64,000 bases of DNA, taken from an uncultured Methanosarcinales archaeon. GTDB taxonomy: Archaea > Nanobdellota > Nanobdellia > Woesearchaeales > GW2011-AR4. The stretch spans positions 20,163 through 84,162 of the forward strand of contig CAZPFO010000001.1 in assembly GCA_964585935.1 (NCBI GenBank). The letters are read 5' to 3'. Below, in pieces: positions 1,288 to 39,981 of the stretch (positions are counted from its first letter, which is position 1; every line of letters starts with the position of its first letter). Position numbers and translations under genes: made by a program. The notes beneath the pieces were generated by a model. It was not told the DNA's origin and made no database searches. It saw nothing but the letters and a program-made list of their open reading frames with translations.

Positions 1288-1322
1288 ATAGCTATAAACT
1301 TCCACTTTAAGGGAATACTTCA

Positions 1323-1472: not shown

Positions 1473-1574
1473 CCAAAACTCCAACCTTCTTTAGGGATAA
1501 AGAGGTTCATTTCTTCTTCTTTGTTTCCTATGAATAAAGATGGATAGCCCCCTTTATATCAATAAAAGAGTTAA

Positions 1575-2339: not shown

Positions 2340-2574
2340 TCTTTTCCCTTAAATACCTAGAGATGGTAAGGGGATCAGAGTCTATTATTTTCAGTGAACC
2401 AGGCATAAATGCAGCATCTTTTAATGTCAATGGTTGATTTGTCCGATTAGAAATAATATTCTCCTTCAATAAGGTATCATATATTCTCCCTTCTTCGTCA
2501 ACACCATAACCATGAGCGCTTAACAATACTTTCTTCTCATCATCTGTAAGCTCTGCAAACTCAAATTCCTTCAA
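2323..2574 (-). CDS. hypothetical small protein (MGE-borne)
   Basis: 83-aa ORF coupled to 1575-2339 by an overlap. Confidence 0.5.
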   Translation of the reverse strand: MKEFEFAELTDDEKKVLLSAHGYGVDEEGRIYDTLLKENIISNRTNQPLTLKDAAFMPGSLKIIDSDPLTISRYLREKIENGC

Positions 2575-2774
2575 AAACTATCACCTTGTATTTAATTGGT
2601 TATCTTTACCATATATAAACGTTTCTGTTATGTATTATAGCCCATATCTTCCAGGGCATTTTTGTGTTAAAATAGGCTATTTTTCATTATGTTAGCTTAA
2701 TCAATTTTTTTTATCCAAAAGTCTAAAGATGTCATACAAAAAAGGCCTATTCTGTGACATTTTTCAATGTTTGC

Positions 2775-2996
2775 CTATCTGTACACCTTCATCCTGCCCT
2801 GATAAGTTTTTGATTTCCTTCTAAAAAGCACATCCCAATTTGGTGCTACAAGGCTATCTGTGACAACTTTAATATGGTTTAATGTCCAATCTAGGCTAAA
2901 CTTTAGAGCTGTGCTATCATTATCTATGTTTGTTAGAGCCATAAGTTGTTTTAACTTTGCAGCTTCCTCATCATTAAATCTGATTGTTATTCTCAT
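2775..2996 (-). CDS. ribbon-helix-helix (CopG/Arc-like) DNA-binding protein
   Basis: The N-terminus MRITIRFNDEEAAKLKQLMALT has the typical RHH beta-strand plus helix pattern. Confidence 0.5.
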   Translation of the reverse strand: MRITIRFNDEEAAKLKQLMALTNIDNDSTALKFSLDWTLNHIKVVTDSLVAPNWDVLFRRKSKTYQGRMKVYR

Positions 2997-3025
2997 CCTA
3001 AACCTCCATTCTTAGATTGATCCAT

Positions 3026-3301
3026 TTAAATTGAATTGAACATTGAAAATTTACAGATTAAGTAGATCATAACATAAGCATAAACAAATGCAATAAAACC
3101 CCATATAATCCCTAGAATTATACCATAAGCTAATGCAAATGTATATTGATTGTCTGAGACAGCAAACAAAAATTCATGGTTCATCATTATATAAATGAAG
3201 TTTATTAAAAATACACCTAAGCTAAAAAATATCGCAATCTTTAATGACTTCTTTCTATTGCTTCTTTCTAATGGCTCAATAATATAATGTTCTATTTTCA
3301 T
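3026..3301 (-). CDS. small integral membrane protein
   Basis: 91 aa with 2-3 hydrophobic helices (LKIAIFFSLGVFLINFIYIM..., YGIILGIIWGFIAFVYAYVMIYLI). It lies directly downstream of the 789-aa glycoprotein gene. Confidence 0.55.
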   Translation of the reverse strand: MKIEHYIIEPLERSNRKKSLKIAIFFSLGVFLINFIYIMMNHEFLFAVSDNQYTFALAYGIILGIIWGFIAFVYAYVMIYLICKFSMFNSI

Positions 3302-3340
3302 CTTAAATCCCTTATTTTTTATTAAAATAGGCTAATCATT

Positions 3341-5710: not shown

Positions 5711-5730
5711 TTTTATTAACCTATAGAGGG

Positions 5731-5759
5731 GGATGTCTGGAGGAGGTCTCCAGACATCC
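5731..5759 (-). promoter_or_regulatory. perfect 12-bp GC-rich hairpin just upstream of the glycoprotein gene
   Basis: ggatgtctggag-gaggt-ctccagacatcc lies 21 nt from the ATG at 5710. It could be a terminator for the tiny upstream TM ORFs or a 5' UTR element. Confidence 0.4.
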
Positions 5760-6042
5760 TTGAATGACTTCAGATTTTATTAAGTTTTTTTCTTCATGAT
5801 CCAGAGTACAAAAATAATTAATAACATCGAAATAATTAATAACATCAACAGCCCACCTAACACCAAAACTGACAAATTCATAGCGCACCTGACATCTTCA
5901 TCCAAATAAATATTGCCAACAAGACTACAAAAACTGTAAAGGCAAACAGGCCTGTCAAAATTACAGATAGTTTAATTTCCATTGTAAAAGATAATTAAAC
6001 ATAATAACTATTTTAAATATTCAAAATTATACAATTATACAA

Positions 6043-6249
6043 TTATAACATTTTCTTAGTTTTGTCGAGCTGTTTCTTAAACTCCGCAAAATGGGAAGTT
6101 AATATCCTGTCTATAATTTTCTCCTTTGTGTTATCTTCCTCATTAAATAACTTATATGCTTCTATTAAAGTGCTTAATTCTTTGCTTATCCTGATGGTTG
6201 TTTTATTTTCAGGCACAACATCCAAAGCTAATTTTTTCATTTTAATCAA
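6043..6249 (-). CDS. hypothetical small protein (possible RHH or antitoxin-like)
   Basis: 68-aa ORF that overlaps the upstream 93-aa ORF by 8 nt. TTIRISKELSTLIEAYK resembles an RHH strand-helix. Confidence 0.4.
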   Translation of the reverse strand: MIKMKKLALDVVPENKTTIRISKELSTLIEAYKLFNEEDNTKEKIIDRILTSHFAEFKKQLDKTKKML

Positions 6250-6523
6250 TCTTACAATACCTCTTTATAGTTCCTCCTGGCCTTAAATCAAAATTATTAT
6301 AGTCGTGAACTGTTATGTAAAACAATCTTATGAATCTTCCAGTAAATCTGTGGTTGTAAACAGCAAAATAAGTTCCCTTGTCATAAGTTTCATAAATAAA
6401 GTTTGCTAATTGCTTGATTGTGAAGTCTTGTATCTTCTCTATTTCTATCAAATCAATATACTCTGATCTGCCGTTTAATCCTCTCCTGTTGTTCTCTACC
6501 CTTTGATGTAAATAGATATTCAT
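6242..6523 (-). CDS. hypothetical protein
   Basis: 93-aa ORF. No family recognised. Confidence 0.45.
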   Translation of the reverse strand: MNIYLHQRVENNRRGLNGRSEYIDLIEIEKIQDFTIKQLANFIYETYDKGTYFAVYNHRFTGRFIRLFYITVHDYNNFDLRPGGTIKRYCKID

Positions 6524-6618
6524 TTTATTGTTTATTACTAAACTAAATTATAGTTTAGTTAGTTTATAGTCTAACGAGTGGCCTATAACATATACTGTTG
6601 GTACTAAACTAACTATTT

Positions 6619-8091
6619 TTAACATAATTCTATTATCTTAATCCTACCTTGCCTTTTTCTTTTAATTTTGCTATTATTTTCCATATCCTTCAACAACATT
6701 GAGAGATGATCTTTTCTAATCCCTTCTTTTTGTATAATCTCTTTTGCAGTCTTTGAGCCATTTCTAACACTTTCAATTATCCTTTCTTCCCATGTTTTAC
6801 TATGCTCAACTTTTTGTTCTTTTTGTTGTTTTCTTTTTTCCTTTTCTTTCCTTAACTCATTGTATTCCTTGACAGCTTCATCCCACTCTGATCCAATTTC
6901 CTTCTTCTGTTCTTTTATATTTTTCATCTTGCCACCCAACTTTTGCCATGTTTTAATGAAATCAATACCCTCATATCTGTGCATAGTAGGTGGAGGTCTT
7001 ACTATAACTGTACAGGTTTCTTCTGGAGTCAAGCAGATACATTGCCCTGCTTTTAGAAATGGCAGATGTTTCATTATGTTGCTTTCGATCCTTATATCTC
7101 CTTTAAACCTCATAATAATTTCTCCAATCTCTTTTCTGTTGGTTAGCCTAAAAGCAAATAAATTTCCAACTTGGGTTCTTAAAGTATCTGAAACATTTAA
7201 TGGACTTTGTATATCTCCAACAATCTGGAGCTGTATGCTTCTCGCTTTTCTTGCTATCTGGTCAATATAATATTTTGAATAGCTTTTGGATTTGTCAAAA
7301 GGCTGCAATGGTGCTAAATCTCCAATTTCTCGAATCAAAACAACAACTTTTGGTTTTATTTTGTTTTCTGTCTTTAGATCATAAATCCTTCTCAGAAGCC
7401 AAACCACATTGAACATTGTAAGCTCCTCTGTCTTTAAGTAGCCCTGATGGAATACTGTAACTGTTTTTACATCATTAAGTTCTTTTACCAAATCAATACA
7501 ATAAGGATTATTTGCAGAAGTTACACAATTCTCCCTTATCAATGCGTTTAATGGTCGTATAACTCCTGCTAGGCTTCGTGTATCACTGATAGGGATAGGC
7601 ATACCACGTTCATAAATATGCCCTGCTTTAGTGGCCTTCTCTGAAAGTGTAATAAAGTCAGGAACCGTGTCTTTATTATTCATCTTGTTAAGTATTGAAT
7701 TGAAAATGTCCTCCTGGACATTGCTTAAATTCCCTCTGCTCAATATGTTCAACTCTGCTCCCTGTAGCTGATTCAATGGAATGGTATAAAGATGGTAATT
7801 TTCAGGCACTTCATTTGGCAAATTACTGCTCATAGGCAATAATATTTTTGTAGGCAATGCCCTTACTGGCAATTTTCTTTTTTCCAGCCATTTTCTAAAA
7901 CTTCCTTGAGCCTCTAAAGAAAAAAAAGCTCCTTCTATCCTGTTGTCCTGATTATATAGGTCAATTATTTTATAATCATGTTCATAAAAATAATTCCCTA
8001 TACCCTCTAATAAAGTTGATTTGCCAGATCCTGACTGTCCAACTATTAATGTGTGGCTTATTCTATTGGTTTTTAGTTTTATTCCTTCCAT
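6619..8091 (-). CDS. FtsK/HerA-superfamily P-loop ATPase (DUF87-like) with a C-terminal wHTH-like tail
   Basis: Walker A is HTLIVGQSGSGKSTLLEG, followed by KIIDLYN. A candidate Walker B is KPKVVVLIREIGD. The basic, coiled C-terminus ends in a wHTH-like segment (SKTAKEIIQKEGIRKDHLSMLLKDME). Confidence 0.65.
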   Translation of the reverse strand: MEGIKLKTNRISHTLIVGQSGSGKSTLLEGIGNYFYEHDYKIIDLYNQDNRIEGAFFSLEAQGSFRKWLEKRKLPVRALPTKILLPMSSNLPNEVPENYHLYTIPLNQLQGAELNILSRGNLSNVQEDIFNSILNKMNNKDTVPDFITLSEKATKAGHIYERGMPIPISDTRSLAGVIRPLNALIRENCVTSANNPYCIDLVKELNDVKTVTVFHQGYLKTEELTMFNVVWLLRRIYDLKTENKIKPKVVVLIREIGDLAPLQPFDKSKSYSKYYIDQIARKARSIQLQIVGDIQSPLNVSDTLRTQVGNLFAFRLTNRKEIGEIIMRFKGDIRIESNIMKHLPFLKAGQCICLTPEETCTVIVRPPPTMHRYEGIDFIKTWQKLGGKMKNIKEQKKEIGSEWDEAVKEYNELRKEKEKRKQQKEQKVEHSKTWEERIIESVRNGSKTAKEIIQKEGIRKDHLSMLLKDMENNSKIKRKRQGRIKIIELC

Positions 8092-8468
8092 TCTTCTTCC
8101 TCTTGTGTTTGTTGTTGTGGTTGTTGTGAGAGATTAAGTGATTTTAACTGTGTTTTATCTGCAAGAGTATCTGGTTTATAATTCATATCCTCTTCTTCTC
8201 CTAAAATATTTAGTTTCATCAAAATATGAGTAACAAAATTAATTGTCATTCCTATCTCTTCCGCAAGTATGCTACCTGCATCTTCTTGCATTGAACATCT
8301 TTGTAACTCTCTTATTGCAGGCTCGACATTGAAACAAATCCAGGGGTTCATAAACCCGCAAAATCTTTGTTCTTGTTCTATTGCCAATGTCATCTGGCCA
8401 GCAATTACTAAATCACGTATATCCTTAGTTCTCCTATATTGCCTGAATTGATTTTCTAATGGGTGCAT
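8079..8468 (-). CDS. hypothetical protein
   Basis: 129-aa ORF that overlaps the ATPase start by 13 nt. It has an acidic, Q-rich tail. Confidence 0.45.
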   Translation of the reverse strand: MHPLENQFRQYRRTKDIRDLVIAGQMTLAIEQEQRFCGFMNPWICFNVEPAIRELQRCSMQEDAGSILAEEIGMTINFVTHILMKLNILGEEEDMNYKPDTLADKTQLKSLNLSQQPQQQTQEEEEWKE

Positions 8469-8474
8469 TTTTGT

Positions 8475-9083
8475 TCAACCTCCTTGCTTTAATTTCTCTA
8501 CAAATGCATTAATAACTTTATCAGAAGGTACACACTTATATCCTGTCCCTGTCGGTATGGCTTGTTGGTGTTTTAATTGCTTAATCAATGCTTTATATTG
8601 ATCTTCTTCATTAGCTATCTCTTTAAAATTAGTAGCAACTTCTTTAATGAAAGCATACAATACTCCTGTAGGTAGATTGTCCGAACATGACTCTGTCAAT
8701 CTAACCCCTATTCGCCTTAAAACTTCGTTCAATAATTTAATATCATTCTCCCATAACTCTGCTAAAAATAAAGTAAAATCTTCTACTTTAATTCTGCCCA
8801 TGCTTTGCTCTAAAAGAGCTACATCAAAATTTAACCTTATGATACTATCTTGCTTCATTTTGTTTATAGCATAACACAACCTATGACATAAACATTCAAA
8901 GTATCTTTTATCTCCAAAAGTTATTGTATCTAACATATTATCTAAAATTCCCACACATTCGCCGTATGTTCTCGCGTCTTTCCAATATTCTGACACAAAC
9001 TCCATCGTTTTGAGTGGTTTATCTTTTTCTCCTTCCCCTCTTAATTTAGGGTAATAGTTTTTTTCTTCTTCCATTTTTATCAA
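8475..9083 (-). CDS. hypothetical protein
   Basis: 202-aa ORF in the same-strand gene string. No family recognised. Confidence 0.5.
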   Translation of the reverse strand: MIKMEEEKNYYPKLRGEGEKDKPLKTMEFVSEYWKDARTYGECVGILDNMLDTITFGDKRYFECLCHRLCYAINKMKQDSIIRLNFDVALLEQSMGRIKVEDFTLFLAELWENDIKLLNEVLRRIGVRLTESCSDNLPTGVLYAFIKEVATNFKEIANEEDQYKALIKQLKHQQAIPTGTGYKCVPSDKVINAFVEKLKQGG

Positions 9084-9100
9084 TCCTCCTTGTTTTTTTC

Positions 9101-9280
9101 TTAAAATAATGAATTGAAGTCCTCCATTATCTTCGCTTCTGTAACGCTTATCTGTGGATTTTTAGGGTTTTTTTCATTTCTTTGCCGGTGAGCCTTAACT
9201 CGGCATCCTGGGGCAAAATACACAGCTTTTTTGCGTGTTACCCAATTACCGCAGTTGCATGGGCAGAGATGTTTGTTCAT
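9101..9280 (-). CDS. small zinc-finger protein (59 aa)
   Basis: Hand-translated as MNKHLCPCNCGNWVTRKKAVYFAPGCRVKAHRQRNEK... The CxC..C...C.RVKAHRQR pattern is common in phage and plasmid small Zn proteins. Below the ORF-track cutoff. Confidence 0.4.
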   Translation of the reverse strand: MNKHLCPCNCGNWVTRKKAVYFAPGCRVKAHRQRNEKNPKNPQISVTEAKIMEDFNSLF

Positions 9281-9380
9281 TTTTTATTTCAGGTTCTCAA
9301 CAGCCTCCTCCGATTCTATTTCAATCATAGTTTTTCCATGCCCTAATGAATTTAAAAATTCCTTAGCCCTTTTGTCATCT

Positions 9381-11324
9381 TTATTTTTCATTTTGTTTTC
9401 CCTCCTTAGTTTTTTTAATTCGTTTTTGAACCTGCTTAGATTCAAAACAAGTTTTACATAAAGGTCTGCCTTCCTTGCTAAACTGATAGCAAGGGGTAGA
9501 ACCGCAGGAATGACAATTAAAATGGATTACTTCGGAATCTGGAGAATCTTCAATTGTTTCCTCCTGTACCTCCCCAGAAAGTGTCAAGTCAGTCAGTTTG
9601 TCAGAACTTGACTTGACAGTTTGTAAAGTGTCAGAGAAAGTGTCAGTATACCACTTGCCTATTTCCTCGTCTCTATACTGACAATCTGACACTTCTGACA
9701 CTTTTTTAAATAGTTCTTCTTTAGTTAAATACCCATTTCGTACAACTATCTCTGAAATTGTAAAAAAATCAAGCTCAAATCCCCTATTACAACCATCACT
9801 AGACCTAGTTCTAAAATTACCAAATCCTAGAGAAGTCATTAATTTTGTTACTTTATTGGTGCTTATTTTGTATTCTGTTTCTGAAGCTGAGACAAACTCA
9901 GATTTTAATCCCTGAGTTGAAATAAAAAAACTACCTTTATGTTTACAAAATTCTCCTACCAATACTTTTGCGAGAATTGACTCCCAGGTATTCTCATCGG
10001 CAGACTCATCTCTTATTGTAAAAAGTTTTGAGATAAAATTTCCCATTTCATTTTCTAACTTCACATCAATACATCTAGCCATAGCTATTAGTGGTTTGGC
10101 AATCAACCATTGTCTATTAATTAATTTATATTTATTCTCAACTTTAGTAAGGGCTTTTTGATATAACTTATAACTTAACAAGCCATTAACATAAGCAAAG
10201 TCCCTGCATTTTCCAAAATCAGGGTCGTTTTTGTCTGGCTCAATAGAAGCTCTCTTGTCTTTTGGATTAGCTTTAATCATAAACAACGATAAACTTCTTT
10301 TTTCAAGTGCCCCTTTGAGTGGTTTGATAGAACCAATACGAGTAAATCCGAAAGGATCAAACTCTTCGGTTATGTTTATGTTTTTGTCACTTTGCCTTGG
10401 GACATAATTACCTTTTTCATAGCTTCCATTCAAATATTCAACAAGTTCTGAATCTCCTACATTCTTTTTTTTAGAATCATCAAAAAGTTTTTCAGCCTCT
10501 TCGATAGATAGCGCCGATTTATTGTTGTGCCTATATCTAAAATAATTAGCAGGGGTTGGACATAAAAATTTTCTTCCATTAAACGCAAGATTAGAACTAA
10601 TTTTCATACCTTTACTTTTTGCGCTATCAGAAACGCCTTCATGCTTGATTATTACAGACTTATCAATCAGATCATAGAAGTAAGTACATTGATCCCAAAT
10701 AGCATTTAGATCATACCAACCATCTAGCTCAAATACCATCGATTCTGTATATTTTTTTTTAAATTCTTCATGTACTCTTCTGAATGACATAGCAAAATCT
10801 TTATAACCACCTTCAACAAATGTTTTAATTGAAGAAAGAGACCATCTATTTTCTTTAATTTGCATAACTGAATCAAAAACAAAATCACAGCCTCTAGGCC
10901 TTGAATATTTTGATATTATGCGACCATTTTCTAATATGATAGCATTAACTATTTTTTTTTGCCAAACAGAACCTTTTTCTTTTCTCACTTCAACATTCTC
11001 TAAAATATTTGCGCCATAATATCTATATTTTTTTTCATTGATTGTTATTGATCCAACTGCACTATCGATCCTCTCAGGTGTTTCTTCCTCATTTAAAATG
11101 AAACTACCAATCTTCTTTTCTGATTCAATCTCAATCTGTTTATTTTTTCTTATGATACTCTCTGCCAAGACTTCTTCTTGATTCTGTTTGTATTCCTCAA
11201 AATTGCTCCAGCTTTCTCCGGGATCGAGGATATAGCCCTCTCCAACATCTCTAATAATCCCTTTTTCATCTTTAACATAAGGAAGGCCTGAATCTTTGGT
11301 GGTCATTTCTTTTAACTTACCCAT
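9381..11324 (-). CDS. large MGE protein, putative replication/initiator protein with a C-terminal zinc ribbon
   Basis: 647 aa, the largest non-structural ORF of the element. The C-terminus is HFNCHSCGSTPCYQFSKEGRPLCKTCF (a 4-Cys ribbon). No Walker A and no clear primase motifs were found, so the function is inferred from size and position only. Confidence 0.45.
   Translation of the reverse strand: MGKLKEMTTKDSGLPYVKDEKGIIRDVGEGYILDPGESWSNFEEYKQNQEEVLAESIIRKNKQIEIESEKKIGSFILNEEETPERIDSAVGSITINEKKYRYYGANILENVEVRKEKGSVWQKKIVNAIILENGRIISKYSRPRGCDFVFDSVMQIKENRWSLSSIKTFVEGGYKDFAMSFRRVHEEFKKKYTESMVFELDGWYDLNAIWDQCTYFYDLIDKSVIIKHEGVSDSAKSKGMKISSNLAFNGRKFLCPTPANYFRYRHNNKSALSIEEAEKLFDDSKKKNVGDSELVEYLNGSYEKGNYVPRQSDKNINITEEFDPFGFTRIGSIKPLKGALEKRSLSLFMIKANPKDKRASIEPDKNDPDFGKCRDFAYVNGLLSYKLYQKALTKVENKYKLINRQWLIAKPLIAMARCIDVKLENEMGNFISKLFTIRDESADENTWESILAKVLVGEFCKHKGSFFISTQGLKSEFVSASETEYKISTNKVTKLMTSLGFGNFRTRSSDGCNRGFELDFFTISEIVVRNGYLTKEELFKKVSEVSDCQYRDEEIGKWYTDTFSDTLQTVKSSSDKLTDLTLSGEVQEETIEDSPDSEVIHFNCHSCGSTPCYQFSKEGRPLCKTCFESKQVQKRIKKTKEGKQNEK
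9579..9703. repeat. iteron-like cluster of five copies of AAGTGTCA/TGACACTT plus a 10-bp inverted repeat
   Basis: aagtgtca occurs at 9579, 9626 and 9638, and tgacactt at 9687 and 9696. tgtcagtata (9641-9650) pairs with tatactgaca (9675-9684). All lie inside the 3' part of the 647-aa ORF. Confidence 0.6.
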
Positions 11325-11505
11325 TGCTACCAGCCTCCTTCACTTTCAAGACCCTTTGAGCAGGAATAGAAATAATCTTACCACTTTTTAATTTAAATCT
11401 CACAAAAGAATTGACTTCCAAAACCTTAACCCAAACCTCTCGTTTAATATCAGTGTCGTCTAAAAACGCCACAAAATCCTTAAACTCATTTGTCTCAAAA
11501 CTCAT
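11317..11505 (-). CDS. hypothetical small protein
   Basis: 62-aa ORF that overlaps the start of the 647-aa ORF by 8 nt. Confidence 0.45.
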   Translation of the reverse strand: MSFETNEFKDFVAFLDDTDIKREVWVKVLEVNSFVRFKLKSGKIISIPAQRVLKVKEAGSNG

Positions 11506-11742
11506 AGTTAAACACCTCTTCTTAACTTAAAATTTTTTTCAACTTACATTCACAATTTCCTCCCTGTAACTATCAAAAAAATCATGAAAGTCATAGACTT
11601 CAATATTATCAAAATCTTTAATTTTTGTCTGCATTTTGATCCTCAATACCCTCCACAAGAACTTTATGGGCATGATCTAAATTACGAAAACCTTTATCTC
11701 GACAAATCTGTTCGACTTCCTGCAATATTTTATCTGTATTAC

Positions 11743-11886
11743 TCATTTTATCCCCAATTGATTTGAATAAATTTGAATGGATTTTTCTACGAAAGAAGAT
11801 TTGTTTCTTCTGTCAAATTCAGCCCCTTTATTCAATAAATCAAGGCTTTTTTTGTCAAGTGTTATGGAGATAGTTTTTCTTACCAT
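11743..11886 (-). CDS. ribbon-helix-helix (CopG-like) protein (47 aa)
   Basis: Hand-translated as MVRKTISITLDKKSLDLLNKGAEFDRRNKSSFVEKSIQIYSNQLGIK, a classic RHH pattern. Below the ORF-track cutoff. Confidence 0.45.
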   Translation of the reverse strand: MVRKTISITLDKKSLDLLNKGAEFDRRNKSSFVEKSIQIYSNQLGIK

Positions 11887-12012
11887 TTTGAATATCAGGT
11901 TGTATTAGGTTATGTGTAACATTTAAGCATAAGTTATATTTAAATGTTTTGGTAATTTATATACTACAACACATAAATATTTATAAATACTTATATTCTA
12001 ATATATTCTAAT

Positions 12013-12669
12013 ATGAGGTCAAAAATAAGTGAATTAAATACTATTGAAAAAACAGAAATAGAAAATTTGAGGATTACTTCTCAATATCCAATAATAAAGG
12101 AAAATATTATTTTGTTAAAACAAAATTTATTACCATCACAATTATTTTGTTTACAATATACAATTAAATCCCAAAAACCAAATACGACAAGGCAGTATTA
12201 TGTTTCTATTGTCCATGAATTTTTTATTAGGGAGTTTGGACATAACACGAGTGAACTCAATGAAGTAATAGAAAACCTACAGAATAAAATAAAGAAAAAG
12301 TATGGATTTGAAAATATGTCAAGAAAAGATATTATTGCTAATCTTTTAGTTGACAAAAACATTTATCTTCTTTTAAACCAATCTTTGATGGATGTAGAGA
12401 ATAAAATGAAAAAAGAGGTGGGTGTTAAATTAGATTGGTCCATAACAAATAAGACGGCAATAATAGAAATTATATTAAGAAAAATGAAAGTTAAATTTCC
12501 AACATATACAAAGATTAGCAATTCACTTGAAAAATTAAAATCTTTTGGATTTTTATCTAAGATTGTCGAAGACGGAAAAACTTATTGGACACTTAATAAT
12601 AGATTTTTTTTAGAGTTTAAAGATAAATTTAAGGATATTTTAAAATTAGATATTAATTCTTTTTTGTAA
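12013..12669 (+). CDS. hypothetical protein with a C-terminal wHTH-like segment
   Basis: 218 aa, and the only plus-strand gene of the element. KISNSLEKLKSFGFLSKIVEDGKTYWTLN resembles a winged-helix recognition helix plus wing. Confidence 0.5.
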   Translation: MRSKISELNTIEKTEIENLRITSQYPIIKENIILLKQNLLPSQLFCLQYTIKSQKPNTTRQYYVSIVHEFFIREFGHNTSELNEVIENLQNKIKKKYGFENMSRKDIIANLLVDKNIYLLLNQSLMDVENKMKKEVGVKLDWSITNKTAIIEIILRKMKVKFPTYTKISNSLEKLKSFGFLSKIVEDGKTYWTLNNRFFLEFKDKFKDILKLDINSFL

Positions 12670-13642
12670 CCATCGTTGTAAGAACTGCTATTGCTTTTTC
12701 AAGTTTATCCATTCTCTCCTGCTGCTTCTGATTCTCTTCTTTGAGCTTTAATAGTTCCGAGCTGAAAACCTTTTTTGCTCCGATTAAATGAGCAGACTTT
12801 GATCTTCTTACATAAGTTTTTAATTCCTTTGCGCTGTAGCTCCAGCCGTACCTATTTGCCAGGGCAATGAGGTCTCCATGTAGGAGTTGAGCATAGAGCG
12901 TTGCTGAACTATGCCTTAAGCATTGAATATTAAGTTTAATGCTTATTGCTTTACTGCTTGCATTTCCTAACATCTTTAGGTAAGATCCATAATTAACATT
13001 AAACAACTTATTGTCATTATTTAGGCTTTTATAATACACTCCGTTAACAAACGCTTTAATATCCTCTGTAAATAATTGTATTGGAATGGTTCTTGGCTCT
13101 GTCTTTGATTCATTGCATTTAATCCAAAAACACTTATTTCCATCTTCATCAAAAACATCCCAGGTTAAATCCTTTTTTAATGCAGAGAACATTTCAGATT
13201 TTCTAAAGCCAGAATCAAAAAACATCAAAGTTAGTATTCTATACTCGAGCTTGTCAAACTGAGCTGCAACTTTCATTATATCATCTTGAGAAGTTGTTGG
13301 CTTTTCTTTTGGCTTTTCATCCTTGCCTATTGTCGCCTTGATCCATGAAACTTCTTTTGGATAGTTTTCATCTTCTCCCCTTGTATGCTTAAAATACTGC
13401 TTTAGGAATTTCTTTATATCCGCCTTAGTTGATCCTGAGAAGTTACTGCCATCATTCTTTTTTATGATGTTTCTGTTAAGGTTATTCAAGAAGTTTTCAA
13501 TCTGCTCTCTCTTCGCTGTTTCTAGGTTAATGTACTTGCTTGTTAAAGTAAACATTACTTTAAGCTTTTTTATCCTTTGCTGCGTAAGCTGCTGGTTCAA
13601 TAGGTGGTTTTCATATTCCTTCCAGGAAGCAACCTGTTTCAT
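12653..13642 (-). CDS. int: tyrosine recombinase / phage-type integrase
   Basis: 329 aa. The C-terminal catalytic region is ...CLRHSSATLYAQLLHGDLIALANRYGWSYSAKELKTYVRRS (R-H..R/H...Y pattern). The N-terminal SAM-like domain lies next to the tRNA att site. Confidence 0.8.
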   Translation of the reverse strand: MKQVASWKEYENHLLNQQLTQQRIKKLKVMFTLTSKYINLETAKREQIENFLNNLNRNIIKKNDGSNFSGSTKADIKKFLKQYFKHTRGEDENYPKEVSWIKATIGKDEKPKEKPTTSQDDIMKVAAQFDKLEYRILTLMFFDSGFRKSEMFSALKKDLTWDVFDEDGNKCFWIKCNESKTEPRTIPIQLFTEDIKAFVNGVYYKSLNNDNKLFNVNYGSYLKMLGNASSKAISIKLNIQCLRHSSATLYAQLLHGDLIALANRYGWSYSAKELKTYVRRSKSAHLIGAKKVFSSELLKLKEENQKQQERMDKLEKAIAVLTTMVTKKN

Positions 13643-13702
13643 AATACCTAGAAAATACTAACTCCTATATAAATTATTCCCCCAATATGGAAGTTTATAA
13701 GT

Positions 13703-13717
13703 ATGCCCCTACCGGGA
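13703..13717. repeat. attR-like core, which is the 3' exon end of tRNA-Arg
   Basis: atgcccctaccgGga is the direct repeat of 1273-1287. Confidence 0.65.
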
Positions 13718-13847: not shown

Positions 13848-13984
13848 TTGGAACCTTATTAATAAGGGGCTGTTTATAAATCTTATCTAGCCTATTTAAC
13901 CACTAAACAATGGTGAAAAAACCGAAAGGTTTATAAAGGAGGTTTTGTGTTCTTTTACTAGTATAAGTCTGATAGAAATGGCAG

Positions 13985-15058
13985 ATGGTTAAGATGAATG
14001 AACCAAAACGCTCACCAGGAATAGACCATAATATTTTAGTAGTTAGTAGAGATACTAATACAATAGACAGTATAACCTCTATTTTAGGAGACCGGATTCC
14101 GATTGACAAAAGATATAATATTAAACCAACCACTGATTTTGAAGAAGCTGTTGGGGAATTAAAGAAAAGTTTTTATGAAATTGCTATCGTATCTTCTATC
14201 GAAGAAAGCGATAAGAGTGTTGATTTAATAAAGCATATCAATGATTCTACAGATTTAGAAACGTTAGTTATTGCATTAACACCCAGAGTTTTAAATGAAA
14301 ATCTAAATAACAGGGCTCTTGACGCTGGTGCTACCCTTCTTGAACCAGTTCCAATTTGCCCTGCGAATCTACGTAATACTGTGGAAAGGACACTTGAGAT
14401 ATTGGGAGGTTACACTGATCCATTAACCAAACTATATAAGAAAGAGATATTTCATGAAAGGCTTGGAAAGGAACTAAAAGACCTTTATGGTAGGAGGGAA
14501 GAAGATCACGAGATTGGGAAGGAAAAAAGACACGGAATTAAACAAGCTAGTTTTTTAAAAAGAGCTTATCGAAAAATAGTTACCGAAAATGCTGATCAAC
14601 GTATTGGTGATAACTGCTATTCTTTGTTGTTTATGGACCTTGATAGATTTAAGGGGATCAACGACAAATATGGGCATGGTGTTGGTGATAAGGTATTAAA
14701 AGAAGTTGCAAGTGCAATTACAAGTATAACGCGTTCATCCGATATACAATCAAGGTGGGGCGGGGATGAATTTGGGATTGGTATCAGAGGGTGTAGTTAT
14801 GAAAATGCATTAAATGTTGCTCAAAAAATACTAGAAGCAGTAAATAATATTGAGATTTATGCAGATAGTGAAAGAATTCAAATTGCGACTTCGATTGGGG
14901 TCGTCACCGCTACTACTGGGGAAAAATTCATAGTGGAAGAATTTTTTAAAGCCGCAGATGAAACACTTTACCATGCTAAAGGATTCGGGAGATGTAATGT
15001 AAAAGGCTATCCTGATTATCTGGCTGCTAATAAAGCTAAATTAGCTAATACTAAATAA
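13985..15058 (+). CDS. diguanylate cyclase: degenerate receiver-like domain plus GGDEF domain
   Basis: 357 aa. The GGDEF domain reads LLFMDLDRFKGINDKYGHGVGDKVL...RWGGDEFGIGI. An RxxD I-site (RSSD) sits five residues upstream of GGDEF. The N-terminal CheY-like fold (ILVVSRD..., VIALTPR) lacks the phospho-acceptor Asp. Confidence 0.85.
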   Translation: MVKMNEPKRSPGIDHNILVVSRDTNTIDSITSILGDRIPIDKRYNIKPTTDFEEAVGELKKSFYEIAIVSSIEESDKSVDLIKHINDSTDLETLVIALTPRVLNENLNNRALDAGATLLEPVPICPANLRNTVERTLEILGGYTDPLTKLYKKEIFHERLGKELKDLYGRREEDHEIGKEKRHGIKQASFLKRAYRKIVTENADQRIGDNCYSLLFMDLDRFKGINDKYGHGVGDKVLKEVASAITSITRSSDIQSRWGGDEFGIGIRGCSYENALNVAQKILEAVNNIEIYADSERIQIATSIGVVTATTGEKFIVEEFFKAADETLYHAKGFGRCNVKGYPDYLAANKAKLANTK

Positions 15059-15523
15059 AAAACCCTTAACTTCTTCACTTTTATAATCCGGAAACGTATG
15101 CCAGAATTCTACAACTTTATCGTCTTTAAACTCCAGAACCTTATGCGCCCAGACTTTTTCTGAGAGCTGTTCTTTATAATTTGTTCCTTTTTTGAAGGAA
15201 GCCAGAACTACCTCTTTCTTTGTTAGGTAACCTGGATCTAGATTTATTTTTCTTTTGTTGTTTTCTGAATAGTTTTTTTCAAGATTGGTTGTGAATATTT
15301 TTATACCTGTTAGTTCCCCTTTTTTTATCTCTTTTTTAAAAACAATTATTTTTTTTATTAGGTTTTTGCCCATTTCTTTTTCATAATAAGAAGTAAAGCT
15401 GTCAAAATCATATTCATTGCTTTGTTTTTCAATCTCTCCAAATTCTTTTATTAAGTCTTTAAGGGCTTTTTCGTAAATATCCCTATTGGAGAACATTATT
15501 GCGAGTAAGAGTTTGGTTGGCAT
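15041..15523 (-). CDS. DUF4416 family protein
   Basis: 160 aa. DFDSFTSYYEKEMG...INLDPGYLTKKEVVLAS...FWHTFPDYKSEE matches the DUF4416 signature (F..T.YYe.EMG, NlDPGYl, TYPDY). Confidence 0.75.
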   Translation of the reverse strand: MPTKLLLAIMFSNRDIYEKALKDLIKEFGEIEKQSNEYDFDSFTSYYEKEMGKNLIKKIIVFKKEIKKGELTGIKIFTTNLEKNYSENNKRKINLDPGYLTKKEVVLASFKKGTNYKEQLSEKVWAHKVLEFKDDKVVEFWHTFPDYKSEEVKGFLFSIS

Positions 15524-15609
15524 TTTTTGATAGGATTTTGGTTTAATAGGCTGTAAGAGGAATAATATTTAATAATGTTTCCCATGGGAGTTGATATTCA
15601 GAAAACGGT

Positions 15610-16887
15610 TTAATGTGAATACAAAGACGGGCCTGAACTATCAAGTGAGGGATTAGCTAAGTTGATTAGCTTAGTTCTCCCTGTACTGTCAAATACTTTT
15701 TTAAATAATTTAACGGATTTTGGGTCAAACTGGCTACCCGTATCTTGGACTAATACATTCATCGCTTCCTGGGGTGTTTTTCCTTTTCGGTAAGGCCTTT
15801 TACCAATCATTGCCTGAAATGCATCAGTAACTGCAAATAGGTTGACTGTTCTTGGTAGTTCAGATGAATGAATTCCATGAGGATATCCTTCCCCATCATA
15901 TCTTTCATGATGATGCAATACAATTTTCCCTGCATCGCCAGGAAGAGTTGAGCCAATAATTTTATATCCGTTTTCCGGGTGTTGTTTAACCGTTTCATAC
16001 TCTTCATTGTTTAATTTTCCCGGCTTATTCAATATGTCCTCAGGTATTCCAATTTTTCCAATATCATGCATGCTTCCGCCCCACAAGATTGAATCTAACT
16101 CATCCTGACTAAACTTTCTTTTAGAGGCTACATATATCGCCATACCTACAGCTCCTTCTGAATGCACAGCTGTCCAATCGCTTTTTACTGCAAGAGACTT
16201 ATACATCAAGTTAAGCGTAGACTCATGCTGCCCCATATATATAAAATAGGCCGAAGTCTTGAAAGCAATATATTCAAATAACCACCTTTCCTGATCATTG
16301 AGCCTATGTCCGGAATTTCTATTTGCAACAAGCGAGCCTACAATGCGTTTTCCCATGTAAATAGGGGAAGCCATATAATGAGTAGCGGTTATGTCTTTTT
16401 CTGACGGATTTGGAACTAAATCCATACCCCTTTGAGTATACTTATGTTCCGTGATTCCTGTACTCCGCATGACTTCCTTTCCGGCAGCTTTTATCCTTGC
16501 AATAACATCCTTACCGGATCTTTTACTAAAGTCTATGGTTGAACCGCGTATCATCAGGGCATTTTTGCCCAGGGCCCCCTCCTTTTTTTCCATGAGGGTT
16601 ACATCAGCCTTAAATTCATCAGAGATTAAGCCGACTAATTTTTCTGCAGGCGGGGGGATAAGGTGGGTGTTGCTATACTCTGCAAAAAGAGAATAAATTT
16701 TTTTATCAAATTCGTTTGTCCTTCTGTAAATCGTATTTTCTTGTGATAATCTTTTTTTTTCTTCGATTGCAGCGCAATATAATTCTATAATCGGTGTTGT
16801 ATCTTCCTTTCCACTAACAATCTTAGAAAGAGCCTTCTTAAGGTCATCCACATCTCCTGAACTAGCTTCACCCCCTCTATCATTCAT
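15610..16887 (-). CDS. GAF-domain HD-GYP phosphodiesterase (c-di-GMP hydrolase type)
   Basis: 425 aa. The C-terminal HD-GYP domain reads HSEGAVGMA...GGSMHDIGKIGIPEDILNKPGKL...HHHERYDGEGYPHG. A GAF-like sensor region lies N-terminal to it. Confidence 0.85.
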   Translation of the reverse strand: MNDRGGEASSGDVDDLKKALSKIVSGKEDTTPIIELYCAAIEEKKRLSQENTIYRRTNEFDKKIYSLFAEYSNTHLIPPPAEKLVGLISDEFKADVTLMEKKEGALGKNALMIRGSTIDFSKRSGKDVIARIKAAGKEVMRSTGITEHKYTQRGMDLVPNPSEKDITATHYMASPIYMGKRIVGSLVANRNSGHRLNDQERWLFEYIAFKTSAYFIYMGQHESTLNLMYKSLAVKSDWTAVHSEGAVGMAIYVASKRKFSQDELDSILWGGSMHDIGKIGIPEDILNKPGKLNNEEYETVKQHPENGYKIIGSTLPGDAGKIVLHHHERYDGEGYPHGIHSSELPRTVNLFAVTDAFQAMIGKRPYRKGKTPQEAMNVLVQDTGSQFDPKSVKLFKKVFDSTGRTKLINLANPSLDSSGPSLYSH

Positions 16888-17042
16888 TTTCCATATTTGA
16901 ATTGTATCTTCTTTATAAACTTTTCTTTTGTAATCTTTCTAAAGTAGTTACTAATATATAGTATCCAGGATATACTTCAAATATTAGTAAAACCGTAAAG
17001 AAACTTGCAATGCTTTATAAAAATTAAAAATTTTCATTGAAG

Positions 17043-20000
17043 TCAATAACCCTTCAAACTAATCTGGCCTTTTCTTTTGTTCTCTGGAACCTCTTTTACT
17101 TCTTCACCTACTTGTTTCTTGACAGCCAGGGCAGTCTTCTTTCCGAGAATCTGCTCCAGAACTTCTAATTTTACTTTTTTAACGTCTGCTATATCTTTTA
17201 TTTTGTTTCTGTAAAGCGCTCTTGCCCTTACCCTTCCAACCTGCCCCAGCTTTAATAAAGGCAGCAGCTCTTCCTTGACGCCATACTTCAGCCTGAGCCT
17301 TAATTTGACAATCTCCTTAATCAGGGGCTTGAAGTGCAGTAGTTTACTTAACTCTTCACTGCTGTACAATAGCCAGTCTGTAATGTCTAATTTAGCCCTT
17401 AATTCACCAGGCCTTACTGCATATCCTTCCAATAAAAACTCCTCATCTTTTTCATTAGCCCAGTCCTGGAGCATCATTGCTGTTTTGACAGAATTCAAAA
17501 AGTCTTCGTACTCCTGCTCGTACATCGAAGGCTCTTTTTCCAGCAAAAAACTATTCTCTATGACCAGTTTTTCCTGCACCTTCTCGTATTCCTTGACTTT
17601 TACCCTCAATAAAGGCCTCATCTCCAGAGTATGGGATGTCATCTGTAAAAATGAGAAAGAGCTCATCCTTCTGTCAGAGGCTTCCCTTAAGCAGCATATA
17701 AAGAAATATGCAGTCAAAGGGTCAATATAAAGCTCTGCAACCCTCTTGCCTATTATTGTAGCCTTTACCTTAAAATCATCCATCTCATCCGCGCTTTTAA
17801 AATCTTCTCCTTCTTTTGCAATGAATTCCCACTCTGAAAGAAGGTCAAGCATCTTCATAATGATGTTTTCAAGCTTATCCATATCTGCAAACTGGAATGC
17901 CCAGAAAGTCCTGCTGAAAAATTTTATAATCTCTTTTTTGCTTCTTGTGAAATTCGCCGCAATCAGGCTTAAGATATAAGTCCTTAAAACAGGCTCTACA
18001 GCCAGCTTAGAATAGATCTCTTCTGGATTGCCAAGTACATAGTTCTCGTAAATCCTGTTTTTTTCAGGTTCAGTGGAGGCTATTGCAATTGCCTCGCCTA
18101 CATTATCAAATTTTGGGCGGCCAGCGCGGCCAGCCATCTGCAGGTATTCTAAAACAGGGATGTATGTTAAGCCTCTAGGGCCATATCTTCTTAAGTCTTT
18201 TATGATAGATCTAAAAGCTGGAAGGTCAAGGCCATACGAATTATGCACTATAAATCCATTAGCAACAAACATATGATCATTTTTAGGATTTTGAGGCAAT
18301 TCAACATCATAAACCTCTTCTTCACAATCAACCCTTTTTATTTCCCGTATAACATCCCAAAATATATCTCCTTCAAAATCTGAATCTCTCCATCCTTTCT
18401 TGATTACCCAGCCTAATTGGTTGCTACATAGTGGGCATTTGCGTAATTGAAAAAATTCATCAATTTTCTTCCCTTTTTTGATTATATTTTTAAAAATCCA
18501 TTCTCCGAGTGTATTGAGGCTCCAGAACCACTCTGTATTGCTTCTACTTCCAACTCTTCTTTTTTTTATTAATTCATAATGGTGGTTTAAGCTGCTATCA
18601 TTCTTTTTTGGTTCGCAACTCAAAATCTTTTTTAATTTCCTAGATCCTAATTCCTTATTCTCCCCGAGTAGTTTAATAACTTTTAATTTGATTTGCCCCC
18701 ATTTTTTTTGATCTTTCGTTCTTCCAGAAAAAATATCTTTGTAGATTTTATAGCTGCAATTGTTACATAAAACATAATTTAGGTTAGAACATAATTTAGC
18801 AATTAAATCAATAAGGCAATTCTGTTTTCTTTGAATATTAAAACCAATAAATCTGTAGAAATCGATTATGCTTCTTTTTTGATGTACAGTCAACTCAAAC
18901 TGGGGCAAGGTAAGGTATTCTCTTTCATAAATTTTCATAATGCCTTCTTTTCTTTTTCTTATCCTAGAGACTATCCCAAACCTAAGAAGGTTTTTTTGTA
19001 TTTGTTTGACTAATTTTTCTGAAGTGTTGCTAAAACCAACTCCTAATCTCTTGTCTACGTAACCATCTGTATCAAATAAACCTTTCAATAACCATGAAAT
19101 ATTTTCGAAATCCATTCTCATTAAATTTTCAGAAATATGTTTTTTATCTCTTTTTTCTACCCCGCATCTTACTAAAAATTCTCTAAACCACTTATTTTTG
19201 CCAAAAACCAGGCTGGGTGTGCCATGGTAAGTTTTTGTTTTCCTGCAATTTAATTTCAACCTGTTACATATCTCCTCAACATTTAAAAAAACCTCATTGT
19301 CCATTCCGACTATAGTTGGGCTTCCTTTATACTTAATTTTTCCACAATTTGTTTCTGCTCCAGAGTATCCATCTCCCAACATAAGCCCTATGAAATAAGA
19401 TAGTTTATGGTCAAATTTATAATTCGGAATGGGGATGTTATTATCAAAAATAAAATCCATAATAGAAGGAATTTTTATATGTTTAAGATTCAACCTCCCA
19501 ATTGTTGCTATTTTATCTTTTTGGCTGATATTTTCTGCTGGAACCACCATCTTTCTGTCTTTTCTTTTAATGAGTATTTTATGATTTGGCGTAACTTTTA
19601 TTGAATAACCTGAAACTGAAGAAATTTGAATAAGTTTTGAAGAGTTCATAATCCGATTAACTTTTTTAGCTTTCATAGAAATTAACTTATTTTTGGAAAG
19701 CGCAAAAAGTGGATTAGAACTCTTAAACTTTGAAACTTCAGTTTCGGACATATCATGCCAAATCATAGCATCTTTTGATAAACATAAAGTAGGAGTACAG
19801 CATATCACCTTTATCTTTCCTTCCCTGAAATTGTCTTCAATCAACGCTCTCTGTTTCTGGGTGAGGCCTGCATGATGAAAAGAAATCCCTTTCTTGATGC
19901 AATAAGCCAGCCTTGTACACTGTTTTGTCGGCTTCGATAATGCTTTTAAAGCCTCTTCGCTTAAGTTGTTTAAAGCCAAGCTTTCTGTTTTGATCTTTTT

Positions 20001-20141
20001 TGAGATGTCTTCTGCAGTTTTTTCTGCACTTCTCTTAGTGTTGACAAATACTAAAGCCTGCTTGTTGAGCTTAATGGTGTCGAGAACTATATTGAGGACA
20101 TCATTGTCAGTTTCGTGAGGGATTTTTTTAATAGTGGGCAT
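17043..20141 (-). CDS. hel308: Hel308/Ski2-type helicase, C-terminal part only (RecA2-WH-ratchet-HhH), interrupted by an intein
   Basis: Motifs present are IV ALVFVNTKRSAE, IVa FHHAGL, V CTPTL[intein]SYGLDLPA and VI QMAGRAGRP. The C-terminal HhH is LGQVGRVRARALY. There are no Walker A or DEAH motifs and no upstream coding space. The likely start is MPTIKK at 20141, although the ORF track extends to 20210. Confidence 0.8.
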   Translation of the reverse strand: MPTIKKIPHETDNDVLNIVLDTIKLNKQALVFVNTKRSAEKTAEDISKKIKTESLALNNLSEEALKALSKPTKQCTRLAYCIKKGISFHHAGLTQKQRALIEDNFREGKIKVICCTPTLCLSKDAMIWHDMSETEVSKFKSSNPLFALSKNKLISMKAKKVNRIMNSSKLIQISSVSGYSIKVTPNHKILIKRKDRKMVVPAENISQKDKIATIGRLNLKHIKIPSIMDFIFDNNIPIPNYKFDHKLSYFIGLMLGDGYSGAETNCGKIKYKGSPTIVGMDNEVFLNVEEICNRLKLNCRKTKTYHGTPSLVFGKNKWFREFLVRCGVEKRDKKHISENLMRMDFENISWLLKGLFDTDGYVDKRLGVGFSNTSEKLVKQIQKNLLRFGIVSRIRKRKEGIMKIYEREYLTLPQFELTVHQKRSIIDFYRFIGFNIQRKQNCLIDLIAKLCSNLNYVLCNNCSYKIYKDIFSGRTKDQKKWGQIKLKVIKLLGENKELGSRKLKKILSCEPKKNDSSLNHHYELIKKRRVGSRSNTEWFWSLNTLGEWIFKNIIKKGKKIDEFFQLRKCPLCSNQLGWVIKKGWRDSDFEGDIFWDVIREIKRVDCEEEVYDVELPQNPKNDHMFVANGFIVHNSYGLDLPAFRSIIKDLRRYGPRGLTYIPVLEYLQMAGRAGRPKFDNVGEAIAIASTEPEKNRIYENYVLGNPEEIYSKLAVEPVLRTYILSLIAANFTRSKKEIIKFFSRTFWAFQFADMDKLENIIMKMLDLLSEWEFIAKEGEDFKSADEMDDFKVKATIIGKRVAELYIDPLTAYFFICCLREASDRRMSSFSFLQMTSHTLEMRPLLRVKVKEYEKVQEKLVIENSFLLEKEPSMYEQEYEDFLNSVKTAMMLQDWANEKDEEFLLEGYAVRPGELRAKLDITDWLLYSSEELSKLLHFKPLIKEIVKLRLRLKYGVKEELLPLLKLGQVGRVRARALYRNKIKDIADVKKVKLEVLEQILGKKTALAVKKQVGEEVKEVPENKRKGQISLKGY
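18240..19784 (-). mobile_element. 515-aa intein with a LAGLIDADG homing endonuclease, inserted in helicase motif V
   Basis: The N-terminal splice junction is TPTL|CLSKD and the C-terminal junction is FIVHN|SYG. The LAGLIDADG blocks are YFIGLMLGDGY and LLKGLFDTDGYV. There are extra Cys pairs (CNNCSYK, CPLCSNQ). Confidence 0.85.
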
Positions 20142-20245
20142 TTTAAAAGGGAGATTTCCGGGGTTTATTAAATTTTTTAAAGATATGATGAAATAATAAC
20201 AAAAATCCAATAAATATATAAATAACTTTAATAAAAAATATATCC

Positions 20246-23961: not shown

Positions 23962-24075
23962 TGGCTCCGCTGAGATTTGAACTCAGGACTTCGAGAGGCT
24001 TTAAAAAAACCTTCACTCGATCTCCGACTGAATTGTTATCAGTCGAGCGCTCTAACCAGGCTGAGCCACGGAGCC
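23962..24075 (-). tRNA. tRNA-Ile(GAU) with a canonical 37/38 intron and a probable second intron in the variable region
   Basis: The minus strand reads GGCTCCG-TG-GCTCAGCCTGGTTAGAGC-G-CTCGA-CTGATA[ACAATTCAGTCGGAG]A-TCGAG-...-CTGAG-TTCAAAT-CTCAG-CGGAGCC-A. It is 114 nt against ~76 expected, so a 15-nt intron plus ~23 extra nt (hairpin GGTTTT...AAAGCC) lie before the T stem. Confidence 0.8.
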
Positions 24076-39975: not shown

Positions 39976-39981
39976 AGTCTA

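Follow-up and report, generated by a model that had tools for sequence, protein, structure and literature searches.

The 64,000-nucleotide stretch analyzed here (hereafter, the window) belongs to contig CAZPFO010000001.1 of assembly GCA_964585935.1, filed under an uncultured Methanosarcinales archaeon, and carries genes predicted to make and degrade the messenger cyclic diguanosine monophosphate (c-di-GMP). Three open reading frames (ORFs) occupy positions 13985-16887: a GGDEF gene on the forward strand, followed by a DUF4416 gene and an HD-GYP gene, both on the reverse strand (Table 1). The GGDEF and DUF4416 genes are convergent, with an 18-nt overlap of their 3′ ends, and the GGDEF and HD-GYP genes lie in two separate intergenic slots with DUF4416 between them. 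A preliminary description made from the sequence alone had reported an intact GGDEF cyclase with an RSSD inhibition site (I-site) exactly 5 residues upstream of its signature motif, as well as an intact HD-GYP phosphodiesterase, the pair flanking DUF4416; the translations and Pfam agree with all of this. As a whole, the locus is best explained, with a probability that we put at roughly 0.65, as part of a Woesearchaeal (DPANN) genome that would carry a resident predicted cyclase in a variable slot, a native DUF4416 gene, and a later, lineage-specific HD-GYP gene.

We started with the predicted cyclase. Its GGDEF domain (residues ~196-343) matched both Pfam PF00990 (126 bits against a cutoff of 23.8, E = 1.5e-36) and TIGR00254 (132.5 bits against a cutoff of 37.4, E = 1.2e-38), and GGDEF domains of solved structure in the PDB matched as well, e.g., PleD at 1e-19. 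The translation contains TRSSDIQSRWGGDEF, i.e., RxxD (RSSD, residues 250-253), five residues, and GGDEF (residues 259-263) in the arrangement RSSD-IQSRW-GGDEF, and its motif string reads FMDLDRFKGINDKYGHGVGD ... TRSSDIQSRWGGDEFGI ... YHAKGFGR, with the active site RWGGDEFGI. According to the alignment with solved GGDEF domains, the protein retains the Mg-binding aspartate (D-x-D-x-FK), the guanine-binding asparagine and aspartate, and the C-terminal lysine and arginine (AK..GR). Hypr GGDEF domains carry a serine where the canonical domain has its guanine-specifying aspartate; in the window cyclase, the Asn/Asp stretch that specifies guanine is FKGINDKYGHGVGD, with aspartate at this position. 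Given these motifs, the protein is predicted to make c-di-GMP from GTP. The GGDEF domain begins with the DPLT helix, after which comes an insert of about 35 residues. No Pfam REC match was obtained in the N terminus, and residues ~14-137 scored 25 bits with an ad hoc REC profile; this receiver-like domain has a serine at the phospho-acceptor position, S-R instead of the acidic pair, and no conserved lysine. Because the phospho-acceptor aspartate and the conserved lysine are both missing, the N terminus appears to be a pseudo-receiver. The window cyclase thus resembles the PleD/WspR-type REC-GGDEF cyclases in its GGDEF motif, in the RxxD motif 5 residues upstream, in the Mg-binding aspartate and guanine-binding Asn/Asp, and in having a receiver-like N-terminal domain, but it differs from them in the degeneracy of that receiver, the ~35-residue insert, the archaeal host, and the lack of any full-length homologue: in a phmmer search of 1.84 billion representatives, the sole full-length match was the protein itself.

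The translation of the HD-GYP gene includes HDIGK...HHHERYDGEGYPHG and matched HD_5 (103 bits against a cutoff of 27.2, E = 1.7e-29) as well as Pfam HD. Among proteins of known structure, its best match was 4MCW (PmGH of Persephonella marina, 3.5e-27), followed by 5Z7C (6e-21) and 4R8Z (4e-17). Aligned with PmGH, the window protein retains the GYP motif and all His/Asp metal ligands, column for column (AVH..., MHDIGK, QHPENG, HHHERYDGEGYP, VTDAF), with the HHExxDGxGYP motif reading HHERYDGEGYP. The two proteins therefore have in common the H..HD..H..HH..D ligands, the HHExxDGxGYP motif, and the KPGKL lysine, and from these motifs the window protein is predicted to hydrolyze c-di-GMP. Unlike PmGH, it has RPYR at the RxxK motif, an N-terminal GAF-like region too divergent for Pfam, and a tryptophan in place of E185, which binds the third metal in PmGH. 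This residue, Trp238, lies within KSDWTAVH, 4 residues before the first histidine ligand, and its equivalence to E185 was mapped through the E185...H189 spacing; the glutamate of "ALE," also considered as the E185 equivalent, was ruled out by the 4MCW alignment. In the trinuclear HD-GYP subgroup, a glutamate or aspartate in the N-terminal loop binds the third metal and the reaction can proceed to GMP, whereas binuclear enzymes usually stop at pGpG (Galperin & Chou, bioRxiv 10.1101/2021.11.05.467447). Since Trp238 replaces the E185-type ligand, the window protein is predicted to belong to the binuclear subgroup, and its predicted product is probably pGpG.

The HD-GYP protein had also been described as carrying a GAF sensor. 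Pfam did not detect GAF in its N terminus (GAF_2, E = 0.25, 12 bits against a cutoff of 28.6), but BLASTP alignments to GAF-HD-GYP proteins were colinear across residues ~87-215. The AlphaFold2 model of residues 1-230 was of moderate quality, with a predicted local distance difference test (pLDDT) score of 63, and all 50 of its best PDB matches were GAF-domain proteins (E = 2e-5 to 7e-4; template modeling [TM] scores of 0.4 to 0.69), the input alignment of the model itself being made of GAF-HD-GYP proteins. The N terminus may thus be described, at the level of the fold only, as a divergent GAF-like domain, a sensor arrangement found in many bacterial GAF-HD-GYP relatives. Upstream of the start codon lies a TTTATAAA box that is similarly placed upstream of the CDP-archaeol synthase gene (CarS; 29448) and of further ORFs. 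The box has 15 matches compared to 8.8 expected, several of them 23 to 33 nt upstream of ORF starts, and that of the HD-GYP gene is a probable archaeal TATA box.

The protein encoded between the two predicted enzymes matched Pfam DUF4416 (PF14385) with 144 bits against a cutoff of 27 (E = 4.3e-42). More than 280 homologues share 50 to 77% identity with it, and every named one belongs to Candidatus Woesearchaeota, Nanoarchaeota, or Nanoarchaeia; judged by these relatives, DUF4416 is a native Woesearchaeota/Nanoarchaeota gene rather than an imported one. A scan of metagenomes with the protein returned 9 loci only, mostly short. The AlphaFold2 model is confident (pLDDT 95.7), and a fold search against the PDB gave no match with E < 1e-3, the best being HPPK/ACT/PII-like folds with a TM score of ~0.42. 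The invariant residues of the family (His/Asp/Tyr/Lys) suggest a ligand-binding or active site. DUF4416 was not mentioned in any paper found by our literature search. Bacterial members share 32 to 43% identity with the archaeal copies and are of like length (~160 to 180 residues), but their surroundings differ: the bacterial gene immediately precedes YicC, RemA, and guanylate kinase (Gmk) in 22 to 31 of ~66 loci, whereas the archaeal gene sits between a Hel308-type helicase gene and a variable signaling slot, without YicC, RemA, or Gmk next to it. In the bacterial loci (L012-L083), DUF4416 often opens a conserved DUF4416-YicC-RemA-guanylate kinase-SpoU array found in Desulfobacterales, Omnitrophota, Atribacterota, Endomicrobia, and others, of which the literature searched holds no description.

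We then used DUF4416 as an anchor and scanned 80 loci from species-representative genomes, along with further contigs, with our own GGDEF and HD-GYP hidden Markov models. A word-indexed homology search had missed the syntenic archaeal GGDEF proteins, which these models recovered from the DUF4416 neighborhoods. Among ~20 distinct archaeal loci, 6 besides the window (L084, L099/L100, L101, which is identical to L004, L005, L092, and L008) have a GGDEF ORF convergent to DUF4416 and abutting or overlapping it. The commonest gene order is PKD-PKD-Hel308-DUF4416-GGDEF-(DNA ligase-nitroreductase-FtsZ), and in L008 the GGDEF gene abuts DUF4416 even though the upstream context differs. The slot cyclases keep GGDEF or GGEEF, and all but that of L099 keep RxxD (L092, a short C-terminal fragment, is excluded), while their N termini vary, with REC in L005, PAS in L008, and no assigned domain in the others. 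A lone receiver protein occupies the slot in L085-L088, and further archaeal neighbors of DUF4416 include a PAS histidine kinase and a Ser/Thr kinase; about two-thirds of the archaeal DUF4416 loci have no GGDEF gene. In the closest relative, L084, identity to the window is 74 to 79% for Hel308 (tblastn), 66 to 77% for the PKD proteins, and 65% for DUF4416, but 31% over 108 residues for the GGDEF protein. Because flanks that are 65 to 79% identical enclose such dissimilar cyclases with differing sensor domains, the site between DUF4416 and the neighboring tRNA-Arg(GCG) gene appears to be a variable "GGDEF slot." In the Woesearchaeal groundwater contig L099, this slot holds, on one strand (5539-8477, reverse), genes for a GGEEF cyclase without an I-site, a 264-residue orphan, and an HD_5 protein without GYP, which may constitute a second, different archaeal c-di-GMP-related operon.

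The HD-GYP gene behaves differently. It is absent between Hel308 and DUF4416 in L004, L005, L010, L084, L085, L099, and L101 and, on this comparison, appears specific to the window genome. Absence from the syntenic position in close relatives, as would be expected of an import, was therefore found for HD-GYP and neither for DUF4416 nor for the presence of a GGDEF gene. The preliminary description had named as a refutation the finding that such modules are already common in the lineage, and this was found in part: the GGDEF gene is not a unique import and archaeal GGDEF genes seem genuine, with HD-GYP still specific to the window. On the evidence of the slot, GGDEF genes appear to be established in this archaeal group, whether by divergence and shuffling or by repeated replacement and import. 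The picture that we propose is one in which a predicted cyclase (pseudo-receiver-GGDEF, with a product-inhibition I-site) and a predicted phosphodiesterase (c-di-GMP to pGpG) would flank a native, housekeeping-like DUF4416 gene. The slot between DUF4416 and tRNA-Arg(GCG) would hold, from one relative to another, differing GGDEF proteins (with REC, PAS, or other sensors), a lone receiver, or unrelated genes, and the insertion of HD-GYP between Hel308 and DUF4416 would be a later event confined to this lineage.

We also looked for possible donors. The best matches to the GGDEF and HD-GYP proteins are bacterial looking, share 30 to 43% identity in the catalytic domains only (34 to 43% for HD-GYP), and are spread over Desulfobacterales, Acidobacteriota, Zixibacteria, Clostridia, and Pseudoalteromonas. 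With matches so distant and so scattered, no donor clade can be named for either protein, and none of the bacterial proteins found exceeds 60% full-length identity to HD-GYP.

The window encodes CarS, RNase P Rpr2/Rpp21, Orc1/Cdc6, deoxyhypusine synthase, and an intein-bearing helicase of the Hel308 type that has "archaeal helicase domain 4," along with intron-bearing tRNAs, in agreement with the earlier statement that the contig is archaeal. Hel308, which borders the HD-GYP gene, is 57 to 79% identical (tblastn) to its counterparts in L084, L085, L099, L101, L005, L010, and L020 and is syntenic with DUF4416 in relatives; the orthologues of L004, L005, L084, L085, and L101 are 514 to 520 residues long and lack the intein. 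Five of the related contigs (L004, L005, L006, L009, and L011) are labeled "uncultured Methanosarcinales archaeon," and their DUF4416 proteins and gene order match those of contigs labeled Woesearchaeota; the label is apparently a placeholder or mistaken.

A shorter contig encoding the DUF4416 protein is also present in each of three independent assemblies (NCBI VAPC010224792.1, Logan SRR6439358, and Logan SRR6439360). These contigs are 100% identical to the window from 14566 or 14616 to 18869, and the joins between Hel308, HD-GYP, DUF4416, and the GGDEF domain are therefore reproduced. They stop at 14566 or 14616, where the GGDEF catalytic domain begins, and this breakpoint may mean that strains differ in the sensor half of the cyclase or in the adjacent island.

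A tRNA adjoining the module had been described as an integration hotspot. Although neither ARAGORN nor Rfam reports it, a tRNA-Arg(GCG) gene is present next to the GGDEF gene; it carries an insert between the T-loop and the 3′ T-stem, and when it is folded, the acceptor stem pairs over 7 bp and the T stem over 5 bp (z = -3.0). Orthologous tRNA-Arg(GCG) genes stand beside the slot in L099 (8591-8662, forward strand; a 72-nt gene called by ARAGORN) and in L084 (9700-9815, forward strand; an intact T-arm, with the D-loop and the region after the anticodon carrying inserts). Intron positions in this tRNA thus differ between close relatives. Being syntenic in L099 and L084, the tRNA is judged to be native; it appears both to delimit the GGDEF slot and to serve as the attachment site for an integrated element. 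The 3′ end of the tRNA (13703-13717) recurs at 1273-1287 with 15 of 16 nt matching (ATGCCCCTACCG[A/G]GA). Between these copies lie genes for a tyrosine integrase (a weak XerA-type match that abuts the tRNA), an Abi-like protein, a 647-residue orphan with a Cys-rich C-terminal end, a HerA/FtsK-like ATPase, and a CBM96 protein, and the ORFs at 1575-12669 have a third-position GC content of 0.20 to 0.29 compared to 0.34 ± 0.055 in core genes. Since the element lies on the 3′ side of the tRNA and the cyclase gene on its 5′ side, the c-di-GMP genes are outside the element. Of the earlier claim, then, the adjoining tRNA stands, as an insert-bearing gene with the integrase element on its other side. 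An 18-nt repeat at 7054-7071 and 13973-13990 was judged to be due to chance.

Table 1. Features of the window considered in the text (positions in the 64,000-nt stretch)
Feature	Positions	Strand	Basis
GGDEF protein, 357 aa; predicted diguanylate cyclase with pseudo-receiver	13985-15058	+	Pfam GGDEF, TIGR00254
DUF4416 protein, 160 aa; native conserved Woesearchaeal gene	15041-15523	-	Pfam
HD-GYP protein, 425 aa; predicted c-di-GMP phosphodiesterase, GAF-like N terminus	15610-16887	-	Pfam HD_5 and HD, 4MCW alignment
TTTATAAA box, probable TATA box	16912-16919	-	25-32 nt upstream of HD-GYP start codon
Hel308-type helicase with intein and LAGLIDADG domain, native flank	17043-20210	-	Pfam
tRNA-Arg(GCG), ~71-nt insert after T-loop	13702-13848	-	sequence reading, fold
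Putative ~12.4-kb integrated element	1273-13717	-	repeat, integrase, low third-position GC
Tyrosine integrase (element)	12653-13642		weak XerA-type match
Abi-like protein (element)	12013-12669		
Second tRNA, 114 nt, intron bearing	23962-24075	-	Rfam, 50 bits
Aromatic amino acid operon	36691-45346	-	

The preliminary description had treated the genes as a single module whose place next to the tRNA hotspot was consistent with horizontal acquisition. A single cassette recently transferred from a bacterium through the tRNA/integrase hotspot would explain why both enzymes have relatives that are only bacterial looking, at 30 to 43% identity in their catalytic domains, and why an integrase and a tRNA adjoin; the codon usage of HD-GYP, the most atypical of the three genes (GC content, 0.39), could also be read in this way. 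However, DUF4416 is native, a GGDEF gene occupies the same slot in the 6 other archaeal loci, the tRNA is syntenic, and the att-like repeat puts the element across the tRNA from the cyclase gene. HD-GYP and GGDEF moreover sit in two different intergenic slots, and the composition check revealed no sharp break: GC content is flat throughout 13-18 kb (0.34 to 0.38), and the synonymous-codon z-scores of GGDEF (-1.0), DUF4416 (+0.8), and HD-GYP (-1.7) all lie within 2 standard deviations of the core genes. For DUF4416 and GGDEF, the cassette is largely refuted, and overall we consider it quite unlikely; the single imported module gives way to a native DUF4416, a recurrent and variable GGDEF slot, and what seems to be a lineage-specific HD-GYP insertion. 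We regard it as extremely improbable that misassembly or contamination attached a bacterial fragment (13.9-17.0 kb) to an archaeal contig. The short contigs do break within the GGDEF gene, and a caution about contamination has been published for archaeal HD-GYP and GGDEF ORFs from metagenome-assembled genomes (bioRxiv 10.1101/2021.11.05.467447; PMC5847659), the 70 archaeal HD-GYP ORFs listed by Galperin & Chou, all but one from such genomes, having been flagged as possible contamination. Against this, the joins from Hel308 to GGDEF are 100% identical in three independent assemblies, an archaeal DUF4416 lies between the two "bacterial" genes, a like arrangement is found in archaeal contigs of other samples, the GC content is flat, and the ORF stays in frame across 14566-14616 with its domain intact.

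Other alternatives concern function. The proteins could be real and yet form no c-di-GMP circuit, with the GGDEF protein acting as a GTP or I-site sensor or making another dinucleotide and the HD-GYP protein acting on cyclic GMP-AMP (cGAMP), pGpG, or another substrate. In keeping with this, the window has no known effector, the receiver domain is degenerate, the HD-GYP protein lacks the E185-type ligand and has a cGAMP-specific phosphodiesterase (5Z7C) as its second-best PDB match, and the relative L099 carries an HD_5 protein without GYP and a cyclase without an I-site. The window cyclase nevertheless keeps GGDEF, the Mg-binding aspartate, the guanine-specifying Asn/Asp (FKGINDKYGHGVGD), and AK..GR, and the HD-GYP metal ligands and GYP tyrosine are all present, so that we find this alternative unlikely. 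DUF4416 had been put forward as a candidate partner of the two enzymes, i.e., as an effector or regulator. Its recurrent adjacency to GGDEF holds up: the two genes are tail to tail, and often overlap, in 7 distinct archaeal loci, including L008 with its other upstream context, and the other archaeal neighbors are signaling proteins (PAS histidine kinase, Ser/Thr kinase, lone REC). The position of bacterial DUF4416 upstream of guanylate kinase in 22 to 31 of ~66 loci and the invariant residues point in the same direction. Yet the convergent orientation means that GGDEF and DUF4416 are not cotranscribed, most archaeal DUF4416 genes have no GGDEF neighbor, a GGDEF or HD-GYP gene lies within 10 kb of bacterial DUF4416 in only ~11 of 66 loci, with no constant position, and the fold has no link to known c-di-GMP receptors. 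With a convergent archaeal pair and a bacterial context of YicC-RemA-Gmk, the functional link between DUF4416 and c-di-GMP is weak, and a partnership seems distinctly doubtful to us. Even more speculative is the wider idea that Woesearchaeota, which are ultra-small DPANN archaea, run a genuine c-di-GMP system in which cyclases are exchanged or diversified in the slot and DUF4416 is a guanine-nucleotide- or c-di-GMP-linked component; this is a long shot that, if true, would make Woesearchaeota the first archaea with a c-di-GMP circuit of their own, along with a new family of receptors.

With regard to the resident cyclase, native DUF4416, and later HD-GYP gene that we favor, the presence of the genes, the integrity of their motifs, their archaeal linkage, the recurrence of the slot, and their independence from the integrase element are established. 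Several observations weigh against this explanation. The archaeal GGDEF domains are about as near to bacterial ones as to each other. In a neighbor-joining tree, only L005 and L008 paired (69% bootstrap) and all six archaeal GGDEF domains came together in 0 of 100 replicates; the bacterial sample had been picked by similarity to the window GGDEF protein, and with this bias the tree cannot separate vertical descent from replacement. As the archaeal domains are not monophyletic and are about as near to bacterial ones as to one another, vertical descent of the slot content is not established; this content may equally well have been replaced or imported repeatedly. Only the long contig shows the N-terminal half of the cyclase and how it joins the tRNA and island, given that the short contigs end at 14566 or 14616; exact look-ups of the GGDEF protein and the integrase in a contig index gave no match and hence no independent copy of the left junction. 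The lineage assignment relies on the names of homologues and on synteny, and several related contigs bear the "Methanosarcinales" label. As noted in the preliminary description, there is no PilZ-type effector: the Pfam-scanned ORFs of at least 100 residues in the window, several of which have no Pfam match, include no PilZ, MshEN, or other known receptor, and no c-di-GMP riboswitch was detected at Rfam thresholds in the 64 kb. From the motifs, we infer that the enzymes are active, that these cells make c-di-GMP and break it down, and that effectors read it. According to a 2023 review, c-di-GMP has been detected in no archaeon (PMC10249747).

Previous reports considered archaeal GGDEF proteins as still to be confirmed (Galperin et al. 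2018; Römling 2022), and our literature search yielded no publication that deals with c-di-GMP genes of Woesearchaeota or DPANN archaea. Other c-di-GMP domains in archaeal sequence records are those of Methanocella arvoryzae RCIX2274 (REC-PAS-PocR-GGDEF-HD-GYP) and of the 70 archaeal HD-GYP ORFs listed by Galperin & Chou. In contrast to these, the window has its cyclase and phosphodiesterase as separate genes, and both the independent assemblies and the recurrence at a single syntenic locus in several Woesearchaeal genomes support their archaeal linkage.

Elsewhere in the window, a second tRNA that is detected by Rfam was not reported by ARAGORN. A complete bacterial-type aromatic amino acid operon is also present, an unexpected capacity for a DPANN-type genome. 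It encodes DAHP synthase I, DHQ synthase, an EPSP synthase-shikimate kinase fusion, a DHQase-shikimate dehydrogenase fusion, chorismate synthase, prephenate dehydrogenase, and prephenate dehydratase.

Because the GGDEF and HD-GYP genes are interleaved with native archaeal genes, their joins are reproduced, and GGDEF recurs at a syntenic position in Woesearchaeal genomes from different samples, the locus gives genomic evidence that archaeal genes of these families are genuine rather than contamination. It offers two concrete proteins, a cyclase and a phosphodiesterase that both look intact, as well as a lineage in which archaeal effectors might be sought. If the enzymes are active, c-di-GMP signaling would reach the DPANN archaea, whose attached or symbiotic lifestyle is the type of behavior that this messenger governs in bacteria.

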